The notes below the pieces were generated by a model, which was given only the letters and a program-made list of their open reading frames with translations, made no database searches and was not told where the DNA came from. DNA of 64,000 nt from Escherichia phage A5-4, in the sequence record OP744025. One strand, given 5' to 3'. Both the position numbers and the translations under genes were made by a program. Positions 818 through 51,730 of this stretch are shown here, piece by piece (position 1 is the stretch's first letter; the number at the start of each line of letters is the position of its first letter).

Positions 818-1277
818 TATTTATTTGGATACCGAAACGATTTTCGTTAGTGGAAAAGAAACCATTTTCCATGCGGCGAATCTCTTCTTTCATCACTTCC
901 TGCATCGTTAATTTAAGGATTTCTTTGTTTAATTTTGGCTTAACTTCACGGAGCTTGTCAAGAAGTTTTTCCATTTCTTCTTTTACTTTTTCTTCCTCAT
1001 TTTCTACCTCTAATTGGTCCATTGCATCTTTACAAACACAGCAATGGCCCACAACTCTTAAAATATGATTTTGTATAGGTAATGCTTTTCTTCCACAATA
1101 CCCACAAACAATAGACCCACCGGAGGACCGGGCATCTATCGTCAATGTAGGCTTGGCCCCTTCTGCTTGAGAATGCCAAGTCTTTTTACCCTGGTAATCA
1201 TACATAAAGAATTCGTAGGATCTTTCATCAACGTGGTCTTCGAGCATATGTAAAGTTCGTGTATTGAAATGTTTCAT
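789..1277 (-). CDS. hypothetical protein with cysteine cluster
   Basis: 162 aa; CGYCGRK and HCCVCKD motifs, charged C-terminal half; first gene after divergent promoter region. Confidence 0.5.
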   Translation of the reverse strand: MKHFNTRTLHMLEDHVDERSYEFFMYDYQGKKTWHSQAEGAKPTLTIDARSSGGSIVCGYCGRKALPIQNHILRVVGHCCVCKDAMDQLEVENEEEKVKEEMEKLLDKLREVKPKLNKEILKLTMQEVMKEEIRRMENGFFSTNENRFGIQINNGEDYVEED

Positions 1278-1338
1278 TTTTAACTCCTCGTCGTTTGTAT
1301 GTGCTAACTATACGAGAACTTGAGGGGAAGATCAATAC

Positions 1339-1366
1339 TTGATTTGCATTTTATTTTCATTATACT
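1339..1366 (+). promoter_or_regulatory. sigma70-like promoter for HD-domain gene
   Basis: TTGATT, 16-nt spacer, TATACT; in divergent intergenic region. Confidence 0.55.
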
Positions 1367-1397
1367 GTGCACATCTAAAACGAGAAGGAGATGACAA

Positions 1398-1961
1398 ATG
1401 AGTCAAGATAAAGAGTTAGCCATTGCGATATCCGTAGCTGCTTCTGCCCATGTTGACCAAGTAGATAAAGGGGGGAATATCTATATTCTTCATCCTTTGC
1501 AGGTGATGCAAACATTGCAGCAAAAGGGAAGGGAAGATTTAATGGCAGCAGGAGTTTTGCATGATGTGATTGAAGATACTGAAATCACTATGGAACACCT
1601 CTTTAAAAAGGGGATTTCAGAAAGAACCTTAGTGATTGTCGATGCAGTGACAAAGAAACGTAAGCAATCTTCATCTGATTACCTAGAGGGGATTTTAGAG
1701 AGTGAGGGTGCTTGTCATGTTAAGCTTGCGGATCTTAAACACAACTTAGATATTCTGCGAACTTGTAGCACCACAGAAAAAGACTTGCAACGGGTCAGGA
1801 AGTATGTAACAATGCACTTGTTGATTACGGAGATGGTTGATTGGTATGAAAGTATCGGAAGGTATCTCGATTATTGTGATTCTTTTGCCTATTCTAGCTA
1901 TCTCGACGAACGTAAAGAATTTGTTCAGAAACTTATTAAAAAATGGAAGGAGTTTAAATGA
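1398..1961 (+). CDS. HD-domain phosphohydrolase, RelA/SpoT-type (small alarmone hydrolase-like)
   Basis: HPLQVM, LHDVIEDT and KLADLKHNL motifs typical of (p)ppGpp-hydrolase HD domains; promoter and GGAG RBS upstream. Confidence 0.75.
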   Translation: MSQDKELAIAISVAASAHVDQVDKGGNIYILHPLQVMQTLQQKGREDLMAAGVLHDVIEDTEITMEHLFKKGISERTLVIVDAVTKKRKQSSSDYLEGILESEGACHVKLADLKHNLDILRTCSTTEKDLQRVRKYVTMHLLITEMVDWYESIGRYLDYCDSFAYSSYLDERKEFVQKLIKKWKEFK

Positions 1962-2491
1962 AAAAGGTATTGAGTATTGAGCCGTTCACAACAACATACT
2001 TTGACGATTTGGAACGTCATGGTGATTATGGGGTACAAGACGCTGATGGTTGGAAAGAATTCCCTGAAGAAACAAAAGGTGACATTACAAAGCTCGGTTG
2101 TAAGATCAATGGATCTGAACCAAAAGGTGTTTACACCATGTTTTCTTTCCTTGAAGCTATGAACCCAATGTACAAGGGAGATCGGCAATTTGGTTTTTCT
2201 TTTGCATCATTCCTTACTTGTAGCTGTGGTCATGGGGGTTGTGCAGGCTATCATGATAATGTGGTTATTCGACGTAAAAAGAATACCGTGATGGTCATGG
2301 GTAAAAAGGAAGATGGTTATGACGAAGGTGTTGTATTGACAGGTGAATCTGTTGTATACTTCGATAAAAAGCAGTGGGACGGTGTTCTAGAACACTACCT
2401 TAAACTCTTCAAAGAAAATCCTGATGGTGTTTTTGAAGATGCGGGTTTTATGTTTACTGGTCGTTGGGGGACTAAAAATTTTTCAAAATAA
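1958..2491 (+). CDS. hypothetical protein
   Basis: 177 aa; ATGA start/stop overlap with HD gene. Confidence 0.55.
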   Translation: MKKVLSIEPFTTTYFDDLERHGDYGVQDADGWKEFPEETKGDITKLGCKINGSEPKGVYTMFSFLEAMNPMYKGDRQFGFSFASFLTCSCGHGGCAGYHDNVVIRRKKNTVMVMGKKEDGYDEGVVLTGESVVYFDKKQWDGVLEHYLKLFKENPDGVFEDAGFMFTGRWGTKNFSK

Positions 2492-2503
2492 TTTAAAAAC
2501 TTG

Positions 2504-2531
2504 TTGACTTAAGAAATAGAAAAGATATACT
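2504..2531 (+). promoter_or_regulatory. sigma70-like promoter upstream of AAA+ ATPase gene
   Basis: TTGACT, 16-nt spacer, TATACT. Confidence 0.5.
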
Positions 2532-2561
2532 TATCACATCAAAAACAAGAGGAGATATAAA

Positions 2562-3791
2562 ATGCAAGCAACTTATCAACGTATGGACCAAACCATGTTC
2601 AAAAAACGTATCAGTGTTCGTGATATGGAATCACTGATTCGCCTAGGGGCTTCCATCGGAAAGACCGTATTCTTTTTTGGTGGTGCTGGTCTTGGTAAGT
2701 CTGAAAAAGTAAAACAGATCGCTGATTCCATGTTCCCACATCGTGTAGGTAATAACCTTTGTGATGTTCGTCTGTCGGATAAAGAGCCACAAGATATCGC
2801 AGGTATTCCGATTCCGATCTCTTATCCAGATCCGAAAACTGGTAAAGAAGTCACTCGTACCGTATATGCAGTTCCAAACTTTTGGCCTACTGATCCTGAT
2901 TGGGAAGGTATCGTGTTCTTGGATGAACTGCCAAATGCACCATTGGGCACTCAGCACTCTGCATATCAGGTTATTCTTGATCACGTTGCAGGTGAGCATA
3001 AGTTCCCGAAAGGTACTGTGTTTGTAGGTGCAGGTAACCGTGATACTGATGGAGCAGGGACTACTTCTATGCCTGGCCCATTGGTTAACCGTATGATCAT
3101 TGCAGAAGTTGATTATAATCTGGATGTGTGGATCGAAGACTATGCGATTCCGTTCCGTCTGCACCCGAACATTATTGGTTTCTTGAAGCAGTTTCCAGAG
3201 CATTTCTATACTGGTGACGTAGAAAACCGAAGTACTCCGGTTTATTCATCTCCTCGTCAATGGAAAACAGCATCTGACATTCTGTACAAGTATGATGCGG
3301 GTGAGATTAATGAATTTATCGCAGAGGTTGCTCTTGCAGGTACAGTTGGTGAAGGCCTGGAAGTACAGATCCTTGCTTATCATTTACGTGCTAAAGAACT
3401 TCCTCCGATTGAAGATATCTTTAGTGGTGCAGTTGAAGAACATAAACTTGATCGCAGTAAGAACGACCTTGTTTACGTCCTGGCACAAACTGGCCTTCGT
3501 CGCATGGAAGATGAGGTTATGGATAATGACATGACGGATGATAAGTTCCTTGAACGTGCAGGTAACTTCCTTACGTTCATGTACAATAACTATTATGCAA
3601 ACAACAAGGATACAATGATTGCTTTGATCTTGGGCGTGTTCCGTGGTCCAAACGATAAGCCATCTATCCTGACTGTTAACCCGAAACGTCAGAAAATGAT
3701 TCCGCTCATGCGTAAAAGTTGCCCGACTGTTTCTGCCGCAGTTATGGAATACATGACTCGCTATGGTCAACTGATTAAAGAATTCGAATAA
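2562..3791 (+). CDS. MoxR-type AAA+ ATPase (CobS-like)
   Basis: Walker A GGAGLGKS, Walker B VFLDELPNA; 409 aa; paired with VWA protein downstream. Confidence 0.8.
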   Translation: MQATYQRMDQTMFKKRISVRDMESLIRLGASIGKTVFFFGGAGLGKSEKVKQIADSMFPHRVGNNLCDVRLSDKEPQDIAGIPIPISYPDPKTGKEVTRTVYAVPNFWPTDPDWEGIVFLDELPNAPLGTQHSAYQVILDHVAGEHKFPKGTVFVGAGNRDTDGAGTTSMPGPLVNRMIIAEVDYNLDVWIEDYAIPFRLHPNIIGFLKQFPEHFYTGDVENRSTPVYSSPRQWKTASDILYKYDAGEINEFIAEVALAGTVGEGLEVQILAYHLRAKELPPIEDIFSGAVEEHKLDRSKNDLVYVLAQTGLRRMEDEVMDNDMTDDKFLERAGNFLTFMYNNYYANNKDTMIALILGVFRGPNDKPSILTVNPKRQKMIPLMRKSCPTVSAAVMEYMTRYGQLIKEFE

Positions 3792-3795
3792 TCTC

Positions 3796-3824
3796 TTGAC
3801 AACGAAAAACAGTTAACTTAATAT
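3796..3824 (+). promoter_or_regulatory. sigma70-like promoter upstream of HNH gene
   Basis: TTGACA, 17-nt spacer, TAATAT. Confidence 0.55.
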
Positions 3825-3827
3825 AAG

Positions 3828-3854
3828 GGCATCTCGAAAGAGGTGTCCTTTTTT
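3828..3854 (+). terminator. terminator-like hairpin with T6 between promoter and HNH start (possible attenuator)
   Basis: GGGCATCTC-GAAA-GAGGTGTCC stem-loop followed by TTTTTT. Confidence 0.45.
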
Positions 3855-3866
3855 AATTTGGAGAAA

Positions 3867-4361
3867 ATGATGGATTTCATAAAAGAAGGATTTTCTTTCG
3901 ACCCCCTTGCAAAGTTTCTACTAAGGAGAAATGGAAGAGAAGTAGGGAATGTAGTAAAGAATCATAAAGGTTATGATAAAGACTATGTACGTGTAACATG
4001 GTCAAGGGAAAGGAAAAGAAAATCTGCGTATGCTCACAGGATCATTTGGGAATTGCATTATGGCAAGATACCTGATGGTTATTGTATAGACCACATAAAT
4101 GGAGATGGTTTGGATAACAGGATTGAAAACTTAAGATTGGCAACTAAGAGTCAGAATGGTCAAAACAGGAAAAACAACAAGAATAAAAAGGATGGTCTTC
4201 CTAAAGGTGTAGTTATGAATCATGGAAAATACACAGGAAGGGTCTATGTAAATGGAAAAAGGTTACAGAAAATTAGTTCCGACCTTGACGAAATAGTCAA
4301 TTGGTTGGAGAATAAACGTAAAGAAAATCACGGTGTGTTCATGAACAATGGAGAACAATAA
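3867..4361 (+). CDS. HNH homing endonuclease
   Basis: H-x-IDHINGDGLDNRIENLRLAT-x-N HNH signature; sits between the AAA+ and VWA genes; track ORF starts at GTG 3843 inside a hairpin, ATG 3867 with GGAG RBS preferred. Confidence 0.8.
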   Translation: MMDFIKEGFSFDPLAKFLLRRNGREVGNVVKNHKGYDKDYVRVTWSRERKRKSAYAHRIIWELHYGKIPDGYCIDHINGDGLDNRIENLRLATKSQNGQNRKNNKNKKDGLPKGVVMNHGKYTGRVYVNGKRLQKISSDLDEIVNWLENKRKENHGVFMNNGEQ

Positions 4362-5899
4362 TGTCAAAAATTAGTCAAGAAGAAAAAGATATGATCGAAA
4401 TGCAAGTCTTCGAAGCTGAACGTATTATTGAAGCTGCAAGTCTTCAACTTATGCGCTTCAAAGCGTTCTACGGGGTGATGCTTTCGTCTATGCCTGTTAA
4501 AAAGGCGACGGAATGGTGTAGTACAATGGCGACTGATGGACGTAACCTGTATTACCATCCAGAGTTCGTTGCAGGTATGACAGAAGAACGTAAAAAATTG
4601 GTACTTGATCGACTTTCCAAATCTGAGAAAGATCCTAAAAAGCTGAAAGAGGGTATTGAGTTTATCAATGTCTTCTATCGTCGAAAGACTGCTCGTGAGC
4701 TTGCTCTTATTCTTGAGCATGAATGTGATCATGTGATCTCTGATCATGCTTCTCGTGGCAAGGGGTTTAATCACGAACTTTATAATATTGCTGCGGATCA
4801 TCGTATCAATACAACGGCGGTTCTTATTCACCAAAAGGGGGATGAGTTAGGTAAGGCATGGTTCCCTGCCGGAGAAAGAACAGTATTCGATAAGAATGCA
4901 GAATTTGGATTTATGGCCTGGTCTTACTGTGATTTCCGATTCAAAGATATGTATACTGAGCAGATCTATGAAATCCTGAATAAAGAGCAAGATGATAAAG
5001 AAAAATCCAAAGGGAAAGGTTCTGGTTCTGGAAGTGAAGAGGGTGATGGTGAAGAAGGTGGTCAAGGTCGTAAAGGTGTTGATCAGCACATGGATCAGAA
5101 TGGTGATCCAGAAGATTCAGAAGGTGATGGTATCGAAGATGCACTAGGAATCGACCGTAAAGCGAAGCCTAAGCAAACAGCAGAGGAACGCCAGTATAAC
5201 GATGGGGTTATGCGTCGAGCCATTGAGAATGCCGTACAGGCAGCAGGAAGCGGTGCACCGGAAGATGCTCGTCGTTTTGTAGAAGCGGCGGGTAAACCAA
5301 AGATTAATTATCTTCGTTTGTTGCGTAAAACTATTGAACGTCTGTTCAAAGATGATGTATCATATCGTCGTTTGTCACGCCGTAGTCACTCGTTAACTCG
5401 GACTCTTCGTGGCTCGGGTTACTTATCTGGACGACAGACGATTGGTTTACCCTCAAAGAATAAACAGAAGACTATTCGTGCAGGTGTCTTCTTCGACGTA
5501 TCTGGATCATTTAACGATGATCTGTTAAGACCAACAATGCGTGAGATTCGTGGATTGTGTAATCTTTACGATGAGTTTGAAGTTACAATGGCTTGCTGGT
5601 CAACAAAGGTTGGTAACATTGAAACGTATACGAAGAAGAATGTGAATGAGATTGCTAACTACAAGATCAAGACCACATTTGGTACGGATGTTTCTTGTGT
5701 GTTCGAGGCATTAGATGAAATGAAAGACCCTATGGATCAGATCATCATCTACACTGACGGTTACTTTGCTGATGTATCCCAAAAGAAAGATTGGGCCAAA
5801 AAGTATGGTAAGAATGTTCTTTGGATCATCCTGGGTCGTGGGTCTTCGTTCACCCCGCCTTTTGGCAAGGCAATTGATTTTGACAAGTATCTTAAATAA
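4361..5899 (+). CDS. VWA-domain protein with HExxH motif and acidic linker (CobT-like)
   Basis: ILEHECDH zinc-binding-like motif, Gly/Glu/Asp-rich central stretch, C-terminal MIDAS-like FFDVSGSF; TAATG stop/start overlap with HNH gene. Confidence 0.75.
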   Translation: MSKISQEEKDMIEMQVFEAERIIEAASLQLMRFKAFYGVMLSSMPVKKATEWCSTMATDGRNLYYHPEFVAGMTEERKKLVLDRLSKSEKDPKKLKEGIEFINVFYRRKTARELALILEHECDHVISDHASRGKGFNHELYNIAADHRINTTAVLIHQKGDELGKAWFPAGERTVFDKNAEFGFMAWSYCDFRFKDMYTEQIYEILNKEQDDKEKSKGKGSGSGSEEGDGEEGGQGRKGVDQHMDQNGDPEDSEGDGIEDALGIDRKAKPKQTAEERQYNDGVMRRAIENAVQAAGSGAPEDARRFVEAAGKPKINYLRLLRKTIERLFKDDVSYRRLSRRSHSLTRTLRGSGYLSGRQTIGLPSKNKQKTIRAGVFFDVSGSFNDDLLRPTMREIRGLCNLYDEFEVTMACWSTKVGNIETYTKKNVNEIANYKIKTTFGTDVSCVFEALDEMKDPMDQIIIYTDGYFADVSQKKDWAKKYGKNVLWIILGRGSSFTPPFGKAIDFDKYLK

Positions 5900-5908
5900 G
5901 GAGGATCT

Positions 5909-6280
5909 TTGAGCGAGTATACTTACAAGTTGTCAGTCGGTAGGCGTGGAGTGGTTATGACTATCAACATGATTAATGAAAGTGCGGAGGCTGTGAAATG
6001 GTGGGCCTCCACCTTTAACGGGAAAGGTTTTACTTTATCTCGTCATAAGGTTGGATCAGGAAAGCCAATAGATCTTGTCAAGGAGGACACTTTCTTGTAT
6101 CCTGATCGTATTGCTGATGAAGATATTGATTTCCTATCTGCTACGGTTGGTAGTTTGTTGGATGAGGAGCCAGACATTGTAAGGTTACTCTCTTTACTTA
6201 CAGCAATGTGGTCAGCAGGTCATGATGAGGAAAGTATGCATACGATGGTAAGGAATACGTTGAGACGTTGGTCTAAGTAA
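5909..6280 (+). CDS. hypothetical protein
   Basis: 123 aa; TTG start 4 nt after AAGGAGGA; start uncertain. Confidence 0.45.
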   Translation: MSEYTYKLSVGRRGVVMTINMINESAEAVKWWASTFNGKGFTLSRHKVGSGKPIDLVKEDTFLYPDRIADEDIDFLSATVGSLLDEEPDIVRLLSLLTAMWSAGHDEESMHTMVRNTLRRWSK

Positions 6281-6439
6281 CAACATTTCCTTTATGCCCA
6301 TTTAGGCATACAATACTATATTAGATGATAAACCCCTCAACCTGCTCGGTTGCTTCGACGGGGTTTATATATCTATTAAAAAATTAACCACACTCACATT
6401 CGTTCGGTACTTAATTTTTTAAGTCACCACAAAATTGTG

Positions 6440-6468
6440 TTGACACCACAATGAAACAGATGTAGAGT
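6440..6468 (+). promoter_or_regulatory. sigma70-like promoter
   Basis: TTGACA, 17 nt, TAGAGT. Confidence 0.45.
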
Positions 6469-6600
6469 TAACAAGAGAAGGAAAGTCAATTGGATAAGTT
6501 TTACATATACTGTCTAACATTGGGATTGATCTTCATGATTGTTGGATCAGTGGGTAAAGTTTTACTCAATAGTTTTGGAATTTATTAAGAGGAGATCGTA

Positions 6601-6843
6601 ATGAGAGTACGTCAACATCGTGGTACATTGATCGAAAGTTTGAAAACTGTTAAACAGATTGAAGGTACAAAACAAGCTCTTGTGGATCATATCAACAAAG
6701 AGTTAGGTAAACCGTTTAACTTCTCTGTTGATTCGATCAGTATTGTGGAAAAAGGAGTTGATGAGCGTATCAACTGGAACAACCATCTGATCCTGATTGA
6801 TGGATTTGGTGTATTTGGTTATTGTGATCAACATCCTGTTTAA
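6601..6843 (+). CDS. hypothetical protein
   Basis: 80 aa; AAGAGGAG RBS; promoter near 6440-6468. Confidence 0.55.
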   Translation: MRVRQHRGTLIESLKTVKQIEGTKQALVDHINKELGKPFNFSVDSISIVEKGVDERINWNNHLILIDGFGVFGYCDQHPV

Positions 6844-6852
6844 GAGGTGGTT

Positions 6853-6954
6853 ATGGGTATTAAATGGTGGTTGTTTGTAGTTCCTGCAAATGATAATGCA
6901 GGTGGTGATGGTAAACGTGCAGTCGCACAAACCTATGTCTATGGTCGTCATTAA
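6853..6954 (+). CDS. small hypothetical protein (33 aa)
   Basis: not in >=60 aa track; AAGAGGTGG RBS just upstream of ATG. Confidence 0.3.
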   Translation: MGIKWWLFVVPANDNAGGDGKRAVAQTYVYGRH

Positions 6955-6963
6955 GGGGTTATT

Positions 6964-7371
6964 ATGGATGCTTTTTTGAGTATGGTGTTTGCACTAACAG
7001 TGGTTGATTGGGTATTTATCGGTATCTATTTACTGTGTATTCCTTTTGTGATCTGGTTTTACATTGACCTTTTGGCAGGTACTGGCAAGGTAAGTGGGAT
7101 GGATTACTTCATGTTTATTGTTGTGATCCTGATGGGACCTTTAGCTTTGTTGTCTTTCCTTATTGCAAACATTGTGGTAAGAGGGGGCGCTATCAAACAA
7201 GCCATTCTTTTAAAGGTGAGTGGAACTGATATCGGTAAGAAGATCATTGTCTGGAACATTACACGTAAGCTTAAGAAGACTGATACCAAATGGGTTAATC
7301 CTTTAGAGCGAGCCGTTCAGAAACGTCACAAAGTCTTAATAGGGAGAAAACATGGGAAATGCAATCCGTAA
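6964..7371 (+). CDS. membrane protein
   Basis: 135 aa with hydrophobic helices (VFALTVVDWVFIGIYLL, FMFIVVILMGPLALLSFLIANIVV). Confidence 0.55.
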   Translation: MDAFLSMVFALTVVDWVFIGIYLLCIPFVIWFYIDLLAGTGKVSGMDYFMFIVVILMGPLALLSFLIANIVVRGGAIKQAILLKVSGTDIGKKIIVWNITRKLKKTDTKWVNPLERAVQKRHKVLIGRKHGKCNP

Positions 7372-7516
7372 AATCAAGTGGAAGTTTTGGGAATACGCGC
7401 TGGTTGTTGCTGGATATCTTTTCGGATACGGTCATGAAGTGTACTATGGTGTGAAGCATAATCGAAACATGGCGTACTTCGCGTGGAAGTTTCCAGAGCG
7501 TAAGGAAAAGAAATGA
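7352..7516 (+). CDS. small hypothetical protein (54 aa)
   Basis: GGGAGAA RBS; ATGA overlap with next gene; not in track. Confidence 0.35.
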   Translation: MGNAIRKIKWKFWEYALVVAGYLFGYGHEVYYGVKHNRNMAYFAWKFPERKEKK

Positions 7517-8034
7517 AAGTCACAGAAAGCTTAGTTAAAAAGCTTCGAATAGAAGAACTCCAGGAAGAAAGGCTCGATCCTATCGAGGTTATCATTGAGA
7601 ACTACGAGAATGGTAGAGGTAAGCTTATAGTCACCTCAAGTGGTAAGTCTTGGGTAGGCCAATGGAATGCAATGGGAGGTAGTGTAGAGTCCTTCATCCA
7701 ACGGGTAGATAATGACTACCTTATCGGATGTATGGGGCGAGCGCCTAAATTCATTGAAGACAAGGATGAAGATCCTGTCTTCATTAAGAAGATGATCTTG
7801 AAGCAACGCCGGACCGATTCAATAACTAAAGGGCAGGCGAGATGGGCTTGGGATTATACGGAGACGTTTGCCCCTGACCGTGATCACATCCTTCATGGGG
7901 TTCCTTTTGCGCTTCAACCCCTGAGGGAGTTAGAAGAACCTTGGTATCTGGACTGGCCCACAAAAATCAATACGGATTATGTACACCAAAGTAAGATCCT
8001 GGATGTTGTTCGTAAAGTCATAAAGCCAAATTAA
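7513..8034 (+). CDS. hypothetical protein
   Basis: ORF track, 173 aa. Confidence 0.55.
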   Translation: MKVTESLVKKLRIEELQEERLDPIEVIIENYENGRGKLIVTSSGKSWVGQWNAMGGSVESFIQRVDNDYLIGCMGRAPKFIEDKDEDPVFIKKMILKQRRTDSITKGQARWAWDYTETFAPDRDHILHGVPFALQPLRELEEPWYLDWPTKINTDYVHQSKILDVVRKVIKPN

Positions 8035-8108
8035 TCACAAAAAGGGGTTGACGGGAGTCGCCCCTTAAGTTAGACTTCAGTTATCGAAACAAAGAGGGGA
8101 AACACATA

Positions 8109-8324
8109 ATGACTAAGATTGTAACTTACGTGTTCGAAGGTGATTCTGTACCCAGTGAATTTTTTGAAGATGTTTACAGCAATGATCGTGGAGTGGAACC
8201 TTTAAAGGTTTTACTTGTTGATGTTACCAACTACGGTGATGATATCGAAGTCACAGTGCAAGGAACAACCCGAGAAGTCATTGATGAACGTATGAAGTAT
8301 TGGACACTGTTGCTGAAAAAATAA
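8109..8324 (+). CDS. hypothetical protein
   Basis: ORF track; GAGGGGAAA RBS. Confidence 0.5.
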   Translation: MTKIVTYVFEGDSVPSEFFEDVYSNDRGVEPLKVLLVDVTNYGDDIEVTVQGTTREVIDERMKYWTLLLKK

Positions 8325-8356
8325 AAAAGTTATTTTAAATTACATAGGAGAAAGAA

Positions 8357-8980
8357 ATGGCTATCTATGCAAAACTGAAAGAAAGTAAGAAAAGTTATTT
8401 TATTTCAATGGACCCATCTAACCGACGTATGATTGAAAATCATGGTGATCGATTCATTGTTCGACCTTCTGAGAATAACGATTCTTACTTACGTCCGGTG
8501 GGTCCACGTATTGAGGGTCAGTTCTTAACATCCCGAGATATCGAAGAGTATTTCACATTCTTCCCTAAATGGTCAGCAGAGTCAGCAGAATACATCGTTA
8601 ACCTAGCGGTTCCACGGGGTCAAGTGGCTATCGACAATCAGTATCTGTTAGGGGATGGAAGTGTTAGTGATTACAAAATTAAAACAAGTCATCCGAATAT
8701 GTGGCGACTGTATAACTCTGATAACCCTGACGATTACGTTATGCTCAACCAAAGTAATTTAGAGAAATACTTCACTTTACAGGAAGATAGCTTAAAGAAA
8801 GCATTGGCTAAGTTTGATAATTACACTCCTGCACCTGTAGAAAAAGAACAGGAAGTTGTAGATACGTATGTTTTTGAAGTGAACATTAAGCGCACAGTCA
8901 GAGTTAAGGATGCGGAAGTCACAGAGGACAATCTGGATCAATTCATTGCACAGCTTACTAAACTGGTTAAAGGAGAATAA
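8357..8980 (+). CDS. hypothetical protein
   Basis: ORF track, 207 aa; AGGAGAAAGAA RBS. Confidence 0.6.
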   Translation: MAIYAKLKESKKSYFISMDPSNRRMIENHGDRFIVRPSENNDSYLRPVGPRIEGQFLTSRDIEEYFTFFPKWSAESAEYIVNLAVPRGQVAIDNQYLLGDGSVSDYKIKTSHPNMWRLYNSDNPDDYVMLNQSNLEKYFTLQEDSLKKALAKFDNYTPAPVEKEQEVVDTYVFEVNIKRTVRVKDAEVTEDNLDQFIAQLTKLVKGE

Positions 8981-43642: not shown

Positions 43643-44098
43643 TTACCCCTGTTTAAGCTTAAAAGATTTAAAGGCTTCGATAAAGTCCATTTCTTTTTGC
43701 GTGTATTTGTGGTCAATTGTATCAGAGAAAAGAGGGCAACGACCATCAACCAACTTCACATCCCACAGATGTTGAGGGAGAATAAATGCAATGGCTGTAA
43801 GTGCACCATTCAAAGAATCATTCTCCTCGCAGAAAAATGCGTAAGGAATCTTCTCTATGTTTGGAGCTAAAAATCCTTCTGCAAAATTAAGCATCTTCGA
43901 TTGATAGCCTCCGTTCAACAAGATCATTGTTTGGTCTTTGCTTTGCCACTGATCTACAAGGTTGTATCTGTCATCATATCGATCGGCATAGGCAAATCCA
44001 TAATGACCTACAAGGTTTGCTGCTGCATGTGCTGCTTGGATACCTGCTTGGATTCCCATCATGTAGCTGTTTACCAATACGTACATCCGAGTTTTCAA
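43643..44098 (-). CDS. peptidyl-tRNA hydrolase PTH2-like protein
   Basis: VLVNSYMMGIQAGIQAAHAAANL and NGALTAIAFILP resemble PTH2 core motifs; motif-level only. Confidence 0.45.
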   Translation of the reverse strand: MKTRMYVLVNSYMMGIQAGIQAAHAAANLVGHYGFAYADRYDDRYNLVDQWQSKDQTMILLNGGYQSKMLNFAEGFLAPNIEKIPYAFFCEENDSLNGALTAIAFILPQHLWDVKLVDGRCPLFSDTIDHKYTQKEMDFIEAFKSFKLKQG

Positions 44099-44415
44099 TT
44101 CTTACCTCCAAAAATTCGTTTTGCAAACTTTTCATTACCAATCGTTAGATTATAAACAACCATAGTTGAATAAACAATCCACGCAAGAGCATAAAACAAA
44201 ATCAAGAAAGGCCACCCTACAAACCAGAATACAGTCATTATTAACCAACCTAGCATCAGGAGTTTATAATTAACATTTCCGTGATTTAAAGGGTCGAGTA
44301 AGTTACTGTTTTCTGGCAAAGGGATACGAAACCCGCCCTGGCGAAGCTTGATTAACAAGAACCAAGCGGCAGAACTTATAATGCAACATAAAATATACGT
44401 TAATAAACTTGTCAT
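44095..44415 (-). CDS. membrane protein, paralog family E
   Basis: tandem paralog of 44412-44741 (WFLLIKLRQ-GF-IP-P, TIGN-K). Confidence 0.55.
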   Translation of the reverse strand: MTSLLTYILCCIISSAAWFLLIKLRQGGFRIPLPENSNLLDPLNHGNVNYKLLMLGWLIMTVFWFVGWPFLILFYALAWIVYSTMVVYNLTIGNEKFAKRIFGGKN

Positions 44416-44741
44416 TTTTTAACCCCAAAGATCTTAGTTAGTAATTTATCATTCCCTATAGTAAGGCCACATAAACTTTTTATACCGAACACCAAGTACG
44501 ACCCAATTGTAACACAGATAATAATTGGGTAAACAAGATACCAGAAGAATGTTGCACATAGCCAACCAACCATGACCATACGTAAATTTACATTTTCATT
44601 GTTCAGGGGTTCTAGGATATACAGGTCTTCACTATCCTTGGGGAAGGGGATGTTGAACCCCTTCTGCCGTAATTTGATCAATAAGAACCAAAGTGGACAA
44701 CTGATCAAACAACCTATTAAATAACCTTCAACCATTTTCAC
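44412..44741 (-). CDS. membrane protein, paralog family E
   Basis: ORF track; 4-nt overlap. Confidence 0.55.
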   Translation of the reverse strand: MKMVEGYLIGCLISCPLWFLLIKLRQKGFNIPFPKDSEDLYILEPLNNENVNLRMVMVGWLCATFFWYLVYPIIICVTIGSYLVFGIKSLCGLTIGNDKLLTKIFGVKK

Positions 44742-46238: not shown

Positions 46239-46357
46239 CTCGTAACCTTCTAATTTCTTTGTCTTGATACCAAACACTCTTCGAAAGTAAATGTAATATT
46301 TCATTATGTTCTCCTAGTTGATGACTATCATTATACACATCTATGAATTCAAGTCAA

Positions 46358-46393
46358 TAAAAAAAAAAAAAAAAAGGCCACCCGAAGGTGACC
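46358..46393 (-). terminator. strong rho-independent terminator after methyltransferase gene
   Basis: minus strand hairpin GGTCACCTTCGGGTGGCC followed by T18. Confidence 0.75.
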
Positions 46394-46400
46394 TTTAAAT

Positions 46401-48249: not shown

Positions 48250-48567
48250 TTAAATTCCGATTAAATATTTAAACTTCCCGTCGTTCTCTGCGATCTTGTG
48301 GATTACATAGAACCAATTTTCAATTCCGTCTTCATCTTCCTCTTTCACACGATCACCAGTTTTCAACTCAACCTCGGAAACGTACTCCTTACTTTCAAGA
48401 AAATACTTCCACTGAACCATGTCTTTAAAATTACAGATTAGTTTATTTTTGCCATCTGTCGTCCAAAGGTCCTGATTGACCCACATACCAACAACGAAAT
48501 TCTTTTCTTTTTTAGGACGACCAAGTGCATAAGTGTTGTTTAACATCTTTGCTTTATCTAAGACCAC
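48250..48567 (-). CDS. hypothetical protein
   Basis: ORF track. Confidence 0.5.
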   Translation of the reverse strand: MVLDKAKMLNNTYALGRPKKEKNFVVGMWVNQDLWTTDGKNKLICNFKDMVQWKYFLESKEYVSEVELKTGDRVKEEDEDGIENWFYVIHKIAENDGKFKYLIGI

Positions 48568-49171
48568 GTTTTGACTCCAAGTTAACTAAGAAATTCTCAA
48601 GCACTGTGATGTTGTCTTCTTTCCAAAGATTAAGTGTTCTTACTCCACTCTTCTTTGCAAGATTGACTGCTGTAGCAGTGCCGCCCTTGGGATTGCCCGT
48701 TCTTGTTTCCTTTGCGTAGTATATCACAAACTTACTTTGCATCAAGTATGCATTTGAAAGATTTTTACCAAAAATCTGGTGTACGTTTCTTTCGTGCAAC
48801 TTCCTTGCCCCCTGACTCAACTTATCCCAACCACCATGAACTTCCTTTATCCATTCCCACCTCATTTCCTTATGTTCTGGAAATTCTATATCAATCGCGT
48901 TTAGTGAGATATTATACAGATCTTTAAGTCCCTGTCCACCTTTAAAGTTGTCCCAAGGAACATATACCTCTGCAAGTTTGCTCGGCGATTGAGCCATATT
49001 ACAATCTTCATGAAACCTCTGCATACCCCTTTGGAAGGCTGCATCTGCACCACCTGCACCACCAGATCGTAATGTGTACCCAACCCTTGCTAATCTCCAA
49101 CCTGCATCTTCCATAATTTTTAATATTTCTTCAGGAGTCTCCCTTGAACCTATTCCTGTATAAGCTGGCAC
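48554..49171 (-). CDS. DprA/Smf-like Rossmann-fold (SLOG) protein
   Basis: GIGSRETP and SGGAGGADAAFQRG match DprA core motifs; start moved to GTG 49171 with AAGGAGG RBS (track start overlaps nrdG by 100 nt). Confidence 0.55.
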   Translation of the reverse strand: MPAYTGIGSRETPEEILKIMEDAGWRLARVGYTLRSGGAGGADAAFQRGMQRFHEDCNMAQSPSKLAEVYVPWDNFKGGQGLKDLYNISLNAIDIEFPEHKEMRWEWIKEVHGGWDKLSQGARKLHERNVHQIFGKNLSNAYLMQSKFVIYYAKETRTGNPKGGTATAVNLAKKSGVRTLNLWKEDNITVLENFLVNLESKRGLR

Positions 49172-49172
49172 T

Positions 49173-49655
49173 TTAACCTCCTTCATCTTCAGTTGACCAG
49201 TACCCATTAACTTTTTTCCAAAGCCTTTGGTTATCTGATCCCCTGAATCTTTTAGTTGTAGGTTTGTTTTCATTATACTTACCGTCCATGATTAAGTCAA
49301 CGTGTTTCTTTATTTCCTCATCCAAGTCTTCAAAAAGATACCCTGTCCACACCATGATATCTTTACTCTCACCAAAGCACAACTTTACTTCCTTGATGAT
49401 TCTTTTTACAATATCAATATTCTCAGGGTCAAGAGGTTCTCCACCCATAATTGACAATCCACTGATAAAGTTTCGAGAAAGATCTTTTTTCAATCTCTCC
49501 ATATCTTCATCTGTGAATTCTTTTCCATACCTGTATGACCAAGCCTTTTGGTTAAAACAGCCTTTGCACTTATGGCTGCATCCACTAACCCACAGGGAGG
49601 TTCTTACACCCTCCCCGTTGATGAAGTCTGTGCTTTCATACCCGCAGATGTTCAA
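49173..49655 (-). CDS. nrdG: anaerobic ribonucleotide reductase activating protein
   Basis: radical-SAM CSHKCKGC near N-terminus; directly downstream of nrdD with 4-nt overlap. Confidence 0.85.
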   Translation of the reverse strand: MNICGYESTDFINGEGVRTSLWVSGCSHKCKGCFNQKAWSYRYGKEFTDEDMERLKKDLSRNFISGLSIMGGEPLDPENIDIVKRIIKEVKLCFGESKDIMVWTGYLFEDLDEEIKKHVDLIMDGKYNENKPTTKRFRGSDNQRLWKKVNGYWSTEDEGG

Positions 49656-51730
49656 ACGTGTTTTTCCCTTTGTAAGACCTCCTGCATCTTACCCTTATTA
49701 TAAGGTCTTGCATTCGGAGCCGATAAATAACCAGAAACCCGTCGGATTACTGAAATTGTTCCTTCTTCTTTATTCCCGCAACAAGGGCATTCAAAACCTT
49801 TTGCTGTTGCATGGAATTCACCACTAAAGTTACACTTAAAGCACTGGTCCACAGGTTGATTGACACCAAAGTAAGGTATCATTTTATAACCGTAATCGAT
49901 CAATGTTTCAAGTGCCTTCATATTATTTTTCAAGTTTGGCGTTTCAACATAACCAATATTACCGCCTGAACTTATTGTTGCGAAACCGGATTCATACTTC
50001 CACTTAGCGAAAGGATCTGAATGTTCCCAAACAGGTACATGAAAAGAGTTTGTAAGGTAGTCTCGCTTAATGGCTTCTGGATATTTTTCCTTCAGCTTTG
50101 TGGCGAAACGATAGCACAGACTCTCCGCAGGTGTTCCATAAAGACTGAAAGAAAGGTGTGAACGATCTCTGAACTCGTCACACTTAAGTTTCATATGATT
50201 AAGGATCATTATCGCTAAACCCTTATGCTTTTGCCCCAAGATAATATCAACTGCTTCCGATAAGCCTACATATCCAATACTGATCGATGCGTACCCGTCA
50301 TAGAATAACTTACTAATCTTTTCATCAGCGCCCAACCTTGCTAAAGCACCCTCCATAAACAGGGTTGGGTTTTGAGATGCTTTCACATTCTTGAGTCTAT
50401 TGACACGAACCATGTGAGATTCGTATGCCTTTTCCATATGCTCGTCAAGGAAAGCGTAAAAATCACCACCTTTTGCTTTGTACTCTGCTGCAATCAGCGG
50501 TAAATTTATAGAGACAACACCTAAATTGAATCTACCATCATACTTCTCTCCATGTTCTGTCGTAAATTTGGAAAGGAAGCTCCTACAACCCATACTTGTA
50601 ACTTTCCCATCTGAAGATCCAGTAACCTCTTTATTTAATGGCACAGAGATGAAGTCAGGATAGATCCTTTCAACACAGCACTGCATTGCCATTTGTTTAA
50701 GGTCATAATTAACATCACCAGGTTTCAGGTTTACACCATCTTGCAAAAAGAAGACAACCTTCGGAAAAACTGGAGTTACCTTATCCTTGCCAAGCCCCTC
50801 AGTATGGACCTTTAGATAGTTTTTGGTAATCATTCTACCAAACTCTGAAGTTTCAAGACCCATACTGATCGTAATGAAAGGCGATTGACCGTTAACACTC
50901 ATTAAAGTATTAACCTGATAAACCAGAGTCTGCATTGCATCATACACATCTCGGTCTGTCATTTCCATTGCTAAAGATTCATTAGGTTTTCCGATCTTTT
51001 CTAAAAACTCGATATTCTTTTTGTGACTCATCTCAACATATGTTTTCAAACCCTCATCGATATGAGCACATGTTTGTCCTCCGTATTGACTGGATGCTAC
51101 AGCCTGAATGATTTGAGTCAGAACTGTTGTTGCAACACCAATCGACTTAGGTTTTTCGATCTTTGCATTTCCAATCTTAAAACCATTTTCAAGCATGTCC
51201 CGATAGTTAACAAGACAACAGTTAGTTAATGGACTAACCAAATAATCCAAGTCGTGAATGTGACCATAACCTTCATTGTGCCAAGCAGCGAGGTCTTTTG
51301 GCAAGATCTGATTAATACTGACATGCTTGCTTAAAATACCTGCCAGCAAGTCCCGATGAGTATTTACCAAATTGCTAGGTTTGTTTGCATTCTCACGAGT
51401 AAATTCTTCAGCCGTTTGATCCAAAAATCCGCTAATATCTGAATAAAGTTTACCTTTGCCTTCACGAACTGAATCCCGATCATGACGGTATTCAATATAG
51501 CATCTGGCAGCATCTTGAAGATTTTTCTGACTCATTAAGGTATTCTCAACAACCTTATGAATCTCTTCTACAGATATACGATCTTTATCTTCAATCTGAC
51601 TAACGACTTCAGTAATGAGTTTATCAACATCGGCTTTAGTGCCTGCGGATAAAAGAGCGCCCCGAAGGGCTGCTCCGATCTTATCCGTGCACAAGGTTTC
51701 TTCACGCCCGTCACGTTTTGCAATAATCAA
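49652..51730 (-). CDS. nrdD: anaerobic ribonucleoside-triphosphate reductase
   Basis: 692 aa; C-terminal Zn ribbon CFKCNFSG...CPCCGN and glycyl-radical motif RRVSGY. Confidence 0.9.
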   Translation of the reverse strand: MIIAKRDGREETLCTDKIGAALRGALLSAGTKADVDKLITEVVSQIEDKDRISVEEIHKVVENTLMSQKNLQDAARCYIEYRHDRDSVREGKGKLYSDISGFLDQTAEEFTRENANKPSNLVNTHRDLLAGILSKHVSINQILPKDLAAWHNEGYGHIHDLDYLVSPLTNCCLVNYRDMLENGFKIGNAKIEKPKSIGVATTVLTQIIQAVASSQYGGQTCAHIDEGLKTYVEMSHKKNIEFLEKIGKPNESLAMEMTDRDVYDAMQTLVYQVNTLMSVNGQSPFITISMGLETSEFGRMITKNYLKVHTEGLGKDKVTPVFPKVVFFLQDGVNLKPGDVNYDLKQMAMQCCVERIYPDFISVPLNKEVTGSSDGKVTSMGCRSFLSKFTTEHGEKYDGRFNLGVVSINLPLIAAEYKAKGGDFYAFLDEHMEKAYESHMVRVNRLKNVKASQNPTLFMEGALARLGADEKISKLFYDGYASISIGYVGLSEAVDIILGQKHKGLAIMILNHMKLKCDEFRDRSHLSFSLYGTPAESLCYRFATKLKEKYPEAIKRDYLTNSFHVPVWEHSDPFAKWKYESGFATISSGGNIGYVETPNLKNNMKALETLIDYGYKMIPYFGVNQPVDQCFKCNFSGEFHATAKGFECPCCGNKEEGTISVIRRVSGYLSAPNARPYNKGKMQEVLQREKHV

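Follow-up and report, generated by a model that had tools for sequence, protein, structure and literature searches.

The minus strand of Escherichia phage A5-4 (sequence record OP744025) carries, directly downstream of nrdG, a gene whose product recalls DprA/Smf proteins. This locus raises the question of where the gene begins, to which family its product belongs, and what such a protein might do for a phage. The whole stretch of 64,000 nucleotides (nt) that was analysed is referred to here as the window. A preliminary description of the locus had proposed a DprA/Smf-like, RecA-loading protein that starts at a GTG codon and is translationally coupled to nrdG, and had considered its place in a nucleotide-metabolism operon unusual. 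The analysis indicates, with hardly any remaining doubt, that the gene encodes a stand-alone Rossmann domain of 205 amino acids (aa) from the DprA clade of the SLOG superfamily, a member of PHROG 768, translated from GTG 49171 by means of an AAGGAGG element in the end of nrdG. The features that define this gene model are as follows.

48554..49171, minus strand: coding sequence of the SLOG protein (DprA clade, PHROG 768), 205 aa, stop codon included, with a GTG start and a TAA stop at 48554..48556
49169..49171, minus strand: GTG start codon, aligned with the ATG start of homologues
49177..49183, minus strand: Shine–Dalgarno (SD) sequence AAGGAGG, within the final nrdG codons, with a 5-nt spacer to the GTG
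49173..49655, minus strand: nrdG, class III ribonucleotide reductase (RNR) activase, the upstream neighbour, with its stop 1 nt before the GTG
49172..49273, minus strand: in-frame 34-codon extension of the mechanically called open reading frame (ORF), judged non-coding in this frame and corresponding to the 3' end of nrdG

That the SLOG gene is a real gene is evident from an end-to-end match to PHROG 768, annotated as "DprA-like DNA recombination-mediator protein" (E 9.6e-63, 212 bits, profile positions 5-186 of 191), from 523 homologues, and from an AlphaFold2 model built with 42 homologues, which reaches a predicted local distance difference test (pLDDT) value of 96.5 and a predicted template modelling (pTM) score of 0.92. 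The mechanically called ORF is longer (48554..49273, minus strand, 239 aa, ATG start) and overlaps nrdG by 101 nt (100 nt in the preliminary description). The GTG preferred in that description stands at the junction, five nucleotides after AAGGAGG: the nrdG stop TAA (49175..49173) is followed by a single base and then by GTG (49171..49169). On the minus strand this junction reads GAAGGAGGTTAAAGTG. The assignment of nrdG is based on its Fer4_12/radical-SAM and PHROG 626 matches.

A single AAGGAGG-N5-RTG match is present in the window, where 0.27 are expected, and 24 of 100 shuffles contain one or more; the SD sequence alone is thus not decisive for the start, and homology is. In 118 of 120 homologues recovered by protein search, the start lies at M-x(1-4)-Y-[TS]-G-[IV]-G-S-R, equivalent to the GTG position, and the other two are fragments. 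GGAG or GGAGG is present 5-8 nt 5' of the aligned ATG in five related loci. In loci L009 and L010, where a 74% identical protein is also encoded 3' of nrdG, the TAA of nrdG shares the reading frame of the ATG and stands immediately before it, leaving no room for an N-terminal extension in these relatives. GTG 49171 is therefore almost certainly the correct start, and the 239-aa overlapping form is judged an artefact of ORF extension because of these homologue starts and the in-frame stop in the 74% relative.

A longer overlapping product, starting at ATG 49273, 49207 or 49186, has an open frame on its side, as well as the 239-aa annotation in phage UPEC06 and a metagenomic call (P0001) that starts at M23. 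Nevertheless, it is extremely improbable: besides the homologue starts and the stop in L009 and L010, the PHROG alignment begins only at residue 37 of the 239-aa version, the upstream ATGs have no preceding SD sequence, and the UPEC06 annotation lacks nrdG altogether. GenBank records are discordant in this respect, with the 618-nt form given for phage A73 and the 720-nt form for UPEC06. The latter record (MW250786.1, 2355..3376 of locus L002) contains an annotation error, combining an unannotated nrdG with an over-extended SLOG ORF, and a spurious plus-strand "hypothetical protein" is called there in place of nrdG. The gene model is hereby fixed, with a GTG start and no overlap with nrdG.

The predicted fold places the protein unambiguously in the SLOG superfamily, since the model has a three-layer Rossmannoid fold like that of solved SLOG proteins. 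DprA ranks first in the structural comparison by a small margin, and other SLOG families are nearly equal to it (MCP 13.5, TM1055 13.4, LOG 13.0). The best structural match is the Rossmann domain of bacterial DprA/Smf (HpDprA 4ljk/4ljr, RpDprA 3maj, SpDprA 3uqz), at 20-23% identity. A fold search of BFVD returned uncharacterised phage homologues and a few fused proteins, and nothing else. In profile searches, the full-length match is to PHROG 768. The Pfam DprA profile PF02481 (DNA_processg_A) aligns only in part, with 12.7-16.9 bits against a cut-off of 29.6, over ~45-60 N-terminal residues (profile positions ~31-91). Such weak matches recur in 37 of 42 family members (best E 1.5e-4), and the SLOG protein has no match in NCBIfam or to the Pfam LOG profile (PF03641). 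The DprA/Smf-like character claimed in the preliminary description thus stands as regards fold and the motifs G-S-R and R-N, and is not supported as regards membership of the DprA/Smf family proper. Three segments besides the N-terminal loop carry the relevant motifs.

49025..49066, minus strand: S36-G49, SGGAGGADAAFQRG, the glycine-rich loop and helix after strand 2; the sole part aligned by hidden Markov model (HMM) to Pfam DprA and PADLOC PsyrA
48785..48799, minus strand: L125-H126-E127-R128-N129, DprA motif 2 (F/L/Y-x-x-R-N/D), in predicted helix 120-134; H126, R128 and N129 invariant
48665..48691, minus strand: P161-V169, PKGGTATAV loop, resembling DprA SGSLITA and without the catalytic Glu of LOG PGGxGTxxE

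Both Rossmann motifs quoted in the preliminary description are present in the GTG form, GIGSRETP as residues 6-13 (49133..49156) and SGGAGGADAAFQRG as residues 36-49. The first of them contains DprA motif 1, G8-S9-R10 (49142..49150, minus strand), in which G8 is invariant and S9 and R10 occur in at least 90% of members; its position was assigned from the motif itself and the predicted secondary structure rather than from a residue-level superposition. The two motifs, G-S/T/A-R and F/L/Y-x-x-R-N/D, form the single-stranded DNA (ssDNA) base pocket of HpDprA, shown experimentally to hold a thymine of ssDNA, and distinguish DprA from LOG (Wang et al. 2014, PMC3950713). PGGxGTxxE, the LOG motif, does not occur in the phage protein; where LOG has its catalytic Glu, at least 90% of family members have Val (V169). 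Other conserved residues are family-specific, namely Y4, H126 and Q132 without exception, and E68, W73 and H112 in at least 90% of the members.

Relative to bacterial DprA, the phage protein shares the G-S-R, [FLY]-x-x-R-N, SGxAxGxD loop and SGS/GGT loop motifs together with a basic character (isoelectric point, pI, 9.2). It differs in its low identity, its score below the Pfam cut-off, a helical insert at approximately residues 74-120, its restriction to phages, and the lack of both the SAM domain and the C-terminal DML1/winged-helix domain: the protein begins two residues before strand 1 and ends one helix past strand 5. Single-domain DprAs exist (PMC3950713), and hence the missing domains are not strictly disqualifying. 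Five motifs (GSR, SGxAxGxD, a strand-3 segment, RN and the SGS/GGT loop) are collinear by eye with E. coli Smf. An alignment of the family profile to E. coli Smf by hhalign and hmmsearch covers only ~20 residues and is uninformative, and the profile of A1 retrieved no DprA from PDB sequences, the sole match being spurious (0.72).

One further partial match points to ShosA (= PsyrA, 8zva), which serves as a DprA-like antitoxin in the defence system ShosTA. In PADLOC, the PsyrA profile aligns with residues 7-47 (E 4e-4), and the protein could be a ShosA mimic that counteracts the ShosT toxin of the host. This explanation is highly improbable: the 41 aligned residues are those of a common glycine-rich loop, DprA, MCP and LOG all match better by fold, and the host breadth of the family goes far beyond one defence system. 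Moreover, ShosA requires its SAM domain for stability, and the phage protein has none. Nor is there an adjacent phosphoribosyltransferase (PRTase) toxin, the neighbours being nrdG and a PHROG 5456 gene.

Within PHROG 768, RB49 gp164, Pseudomonas phage CHA_P1 gp150, and the Phapecoctavirus and Slopekvirus homologues have the same length, the five collinear motifs and a start three residues before YTGIGSR. The window copy differs in using GTG, in abutting nrdG, and in the longer helical insert typical of Vequintavirinae; nothing essential sets it apart. It is an ordinary member of a catalogued and routinely annotated family, and its short gene model is already in GenBank for A73. The window region is 95-96% identical to Escherichia phages LTH01, A73, W70, UPEC06 and A7_1 (Vequintavirinae, ~140 kb). 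A73 and W70 are treated in the paper describing the Septuagintavirus clade, in which the SLOG gene is unmentioned (PMC11370258).

The family is widespread. Homologues were found by tblastn in 1,419 of 50,697 phage records (~3%), with carriers among Klebsiella, Pseudomonas, Escherichia, Vibrio, Aeromonas and Acinetobacter phages, as well as T4-like phages such as RB49, Phapecoctavirus, PAK_P3-like phages and jumbo phages. The family profile collects 5,499 clusters at 50% identity (E <= 1e-3) with no cellular DprA swept in; the PHROG 768-type family is self-contained and stands apart from cellular DprA, whose family is far larger. In 185,579 species genomes, a pattern-limited scan gave only nine loci, mostly contigs of metagenome-assembled genomes (MAGs); no ADP-ribosyltransferase (ART) toxin was identified next to these nine, where a toxin–antitoxin-like context had been sought. 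The family is phage-specific, and its scattered, position-variable occurrence looks accessory. One member appears to have decayed: the Avunavirus homologue of phage Av-05 (NC_025830.1, 4016..4561 of locus L005) starts with LRSGKAEGAD at a TTG, lacks strand 1 and G-S-R, and is preceded by a short intergenic stretch and then by oppositely oriented tail-fibre genes, being probably a truncated, inactive copy.

The genomic settings bear directly on the supposed link to nucleotide metabolism. In Certrevirus and Mydovirus, the genes run nrdA, nrdB, grx, ..., endolysin, phoH, SLOG, small gene, ..., ClpP-like, methyltransferase (MTase), CCA-adding enzyme, with no nrdDG. The SLOG gene of Salmonella phage SSBI34 lies 3' of endolysin, again with no nrdDG, and that of Avunavirus comes after divergently oriented tail-fibre genes. 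Outside the subfamily, it adjoins a capsid vertex gene (RB49), endolysin and helicase genes (CHA_P1), a phosphatase gene (Phapecoctavirus) or, in other phages, NAD-salvage genes. Across 80 IMG/VR loci from 31 lineages, no universal neighbour exists. A position of nrdD-nrdG between phoH and SLOG is confined to the clade of the window and the 74% relative. A functional linkage to nrdG was rejected, the adjacency being missing in Certrevirus, Mydovirus, SSBI34, Avunavirus and all non-Vequintavirinae carriers. Comparison of these loci indicates that it is a lineage quirk, a by-product of the nrdDG cassette in part of the subfamily. The idea that the position in a nucleotide-metabolism operon is unusual or meaningful does not survive this comparison, as sister genera have the gene after phoH or endolysin without nrdDG.

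The same evidence bears on the view that the protein is a LOG-like nucleotide N-glycosidase, or another nucleotide-processing enzyme, serving a deoxynucleoside triphosphate (dNTP)-supply module composed of RNR I, RNR III, PhoH, thymidylate synthase and deoxynucleoside monophosphate (dNMP) kinase. This view is quite unlikely. Proteins of the LOG, TM1055 and Moco-carrier type belong to the comparison, but the phage protein lacks PGGxGTxxE, with Val in place of the catalytic Glu, and has the DprA-type R-N helix motif instead; the nrdG adjacency is lineage-specific, and no nucleotide-metabolism neighbour is conserved across lineages.

A different theme emerges from domain fusions and neighbouring genes. 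The ten longest proteins among the top 150 family representatives were checked for fusions, and four of them contain a NADAR domain above the Pfam cut-off (P0140, P0228, P0129 and P0133). Two are NADAR-SLOG proteins of 322-333 aa; the other two, the metagenomic P0129 and P0133, are polyvalent proteins of ~1,480 aa with an unusual multi-SLOG architecture, in which the DprA-like SLOG domain is accompanied by YAcAr and LDcluster4 SLOG domains and a C-terminal NADAR. In addition, a copy from a bacterial MAG (L096), among the nine loci of the species-genome scan, is a DUF4326-SLOG fusion (75.6 bits). No recombination domain was matched in the other fused members tested, several of whose extensions had no Pfam match at all.

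Gene neighbourhoods repeat these associations. The SLOG and NADAR genes of Vibrio phage VPMCC14 overlap by 4 nt, and Xanthomonas phage XacN1 has an array of NADAR, an unknown gene, Nudix and SLOG. A Macro cluster, whose tested representative scores 23.9 bits against a cut-off of 22, lies one or two genes upstream of SLOG in five of the 31 lineages, and a cluster assigned by its representative to NAMPT/NAPRTase lies upstream in four. Two IMG/VR contigs of ~50-95 kb (L030 and L033, ~1000-8400) share a conserved array of a 271-aa unknown gene, NAMPT, Macro, a small gene, SLOG, small genes and a TelA-like gene (PF05816), which looks like an NAD+/ADP-ribose counter-defence islet of an uncultured phage group. 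When the 121 immediate neighbours in the 31 lineages were matched to PHROG or Pfam families, the 25 commonest included no recombinase or ssDNA-binding protein (SSB) family; these tables cover the top 25 families only, so that a single rare match could be missed.

Viral SLOG domains have been predicted to act on ADP-ribose derivatives, with fusions to Macro, NADAR and DUF4326, in a viral ADP-ribose-processing network defined as NADAR, Macro, Nudix, DUF4326 and SLOG (Iyer et al. 2022, PMC9503650). The SLOG protein belongs to the same superfamily as these viral SLOGs, the ThsA SLOG (7uxs) and YpsA (2nx2), and the fusions and adjacencies of its family to NADAR, DUF4326, Macro and Nudix are those described for viral SLOGs. 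NADAR (T4 gp30.3, AdfN) and DarG-like Macro proteins are experimentally shown phage counter-measures to ADP-ribosylation of ssDNA by DarT (PMC11257639/PMC11825919, PMC11481870, PMC13309987). Taken together, the NADAR, DUF4326, Macro, Nudix and NAMPT associations point to a link between the family and NAD+/ADP-ribose counter-defence.

On this basis, a tentative reading is preferred, in which the SLOG protein may be a nucleotide- or ssDNA-base-binding accessory counter-defence factor in an NAD+/ADP-ribose conflict with the host. We infer a DprA-type pocket, composed of the G-S-R loop, the SGxAxGxD loop, the L-H-x-R-N helix and the GGT loop, which would hold a nucleotide base, either an ssDNA base or that of an ADP-ribose-bearing nucleotide. 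After a DarT-type attack, ADP-ribosylated ssDNA would be recognised, shielded or freed of its modification by the protein; alternatively, the protein would bind or degrade ADP-ribose-derived signals. A pocket for an ssDNA base would be compatible with the ADP-ribose theme because DarT modifies ssDNA bases. There would be no RecA loading for transformation-like recombination, and the adjacency to nrdG would be an accident of the nrdDG cassette between phoH and SLOG in this lineage.

The main rival is a classical DprA-like role, which is also what the PHROG label means. The protein would then dimerise, bind and protect phage ssDNA through two base pockets, and load RecA or a phage recombinase as a mediator of recombination or replication restart. 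Its conserved base pocket and basic pI suit a minimal DprA-like ssDNA binder, and DprA/Smf copies of jumbo phages have been read as additional ssDNA binders (Iyer et al. 2021). On the other hand, the score lies below the PF02481 threshold, SAM and DML1 are lacking, cellular DprA is beyond the reach of the family profile, and the sporadic, position-variable distribution looks accessory. The commonest families of the neighbours include no recombinase or SSB, and the fusions found are to NADAR and DUF4326. Furthermore, T4-like carriers such as RB49 already possess UvsY mediators. No recombinase was found among the large ORFs of the window either. This role is considered somewhat less probable than the counter-defence reading, and the RecA-loading claim of the preliminary description finds no support in the Pfam score, the domain content or the separateness of the family from cellular DprA.

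Several observations also weigh against the counter-defence reading. The conserved pocket motifs are precisely the ssDNA-binding motifs of HpDprA, which the DprA-like rival explains equally well, and the jumbo-phage proposal mentioned above is in the same direction. No catalytic residue can be named, the catalytic Glu of LOG being missing. NADAR, Macro and NAMPT were sought in the window by phmmer and gave nothing at E < 0.05; the own neighbours of the gene here are nrdG and proteins of unknown function. The fusions and adjacencies belong to a small minority, four of the 150 top representatives and nine of ~1,400 phage records as raw counts. An experimental study of this phage family was not found in the literature.

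A more specific version of the counter-defence reading extends to the whole family. PHROG 768 proteins would be no recombination mediators but phage-specific SLOGs recognising a flipped ADP-ribosylated ssDNA base or an ADP-ribose-derived immune signal, acting by hydrolysis of the N-glycosidic bond between base and ribose or by sequestration of the ligand. This is a possibility on the less probable side. If it is true, they would represent a new and widespread counter-defence, present in ~3% of sequenced phages, against DNA ADP-ribosylation of the DarT type or TIR/Thoeris-type signalling, working alongside NADAR and Macro enzymes. The label "DNA recombination-mediator" that the protein carries in ~1,400 phages derives from remote similarity alone; if the ADP-ribose reading holds, this standard annotation is misleading, and a new anti-defence activity would be accessible in easily handled E. 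coli phages.

Turning to the local organisation, the minus-strand array has the order phoH-nrdD-nrdG-SLOG-p105-p156-ClpP-like-MTase, and its junctions from phoH through MTase all lie between -14 and +12 nt. The coupled-looking geometry of nrdG and SLOG is thus the local norm and implies no special link to nrdG. The pair has the features of coupled genes, namely a 1-nt gap, an SD sequence in the last nrdG codons and no terminator-like site between them; translational coupling, as put forward in the preliminary description, is plausible. Downstream of SLOG, the sole long-stem terminator-like site found on the minus strand by a consensus scan is a strong hairpin of the intrinsic-terminator type at 46396..46373, which consists of a 10-bp stem and a subsequent T10 and lies just behind the MTase gene. 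Directly past it, a promoter-like TTGACT-16-TATAAT is present at 46330..46357 (minus strand), and the two sites probably mark where the phoH...MTase transcription unit ends and the following one begins.

Another promoter-like sequence, TTGACT-17-TATAAT (49272..49300, minus strand, 11/12 match), lies in the 3' end of nrdG, ~100 nt 5' of the GTG, and could feed the SLOG gene as well; the -10 box coincides in part with the start codon (ATG) of the spurious long ORF. Conservation of this box is weak, as it is TATGAT in A73 and not recognisable in L009, and the number of promoter-like sites in the window is not above that in shuffles. The internal promoter was set aside on these grounds.

Immediately downstream of the SLOG gene lies a small gene of the array.

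48250..48567, minus strand: p105, 105 aa, PHROG 5456 (unknown function), with a 14-nt overlap with SLOG

Two starts are candidates for p105: GTG 48567, which gives this overlap and is used in A73, and ATG 48546, the start chosen in UPEC06, 7 nt past the SLOG stop. Both are compatible with the PHROG 5456 alignment, which begins at residue 8. As a universal partner of SLOG, p105 is ruled out, since only 11 of the 80 loci yield a jackhmmer match, each time in the gene directly downstream and in a Vequintavirinae-type context (phoH/ClpP-like/MTase neighbours).

In the window, nrdD (49652..51730) is a single intact ORF of 692 aa with a TTG start. In L009 (191-2533) and L010 (1-2533), the gene is called as two ORFs, the first of 386 aa (ATP-cone and NRDD) and the second of 312 aa (NRDD and Gly_radical). 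The interval between them is ~240 nt long in L009, and the one in L010 contains an extra 169-aa ORF. Insertions of the intron or homing-endonuclease kind are known in T4 nrdD, and the split in both loci looks like such an insertion.

Elsewhere in the window, two groups of paralogous genes were noted on the minus strand. At 30211..33742, three ORFs lie in tandem (380, 414 and 410 aa), each with a match to PHROG 4219/7220, "regulator of chromosome condensation" (RCC1-like repeats); as mechanically called, the last two overlap by ~100 nt. At 44095..44741, two overlapping adjacent genes encode small membrane proteins of 106 and 109 aa, which share ...WFLLIKLRQ[GK]GF.IP.P... and a C-terminal TIGN[ED]K motif.

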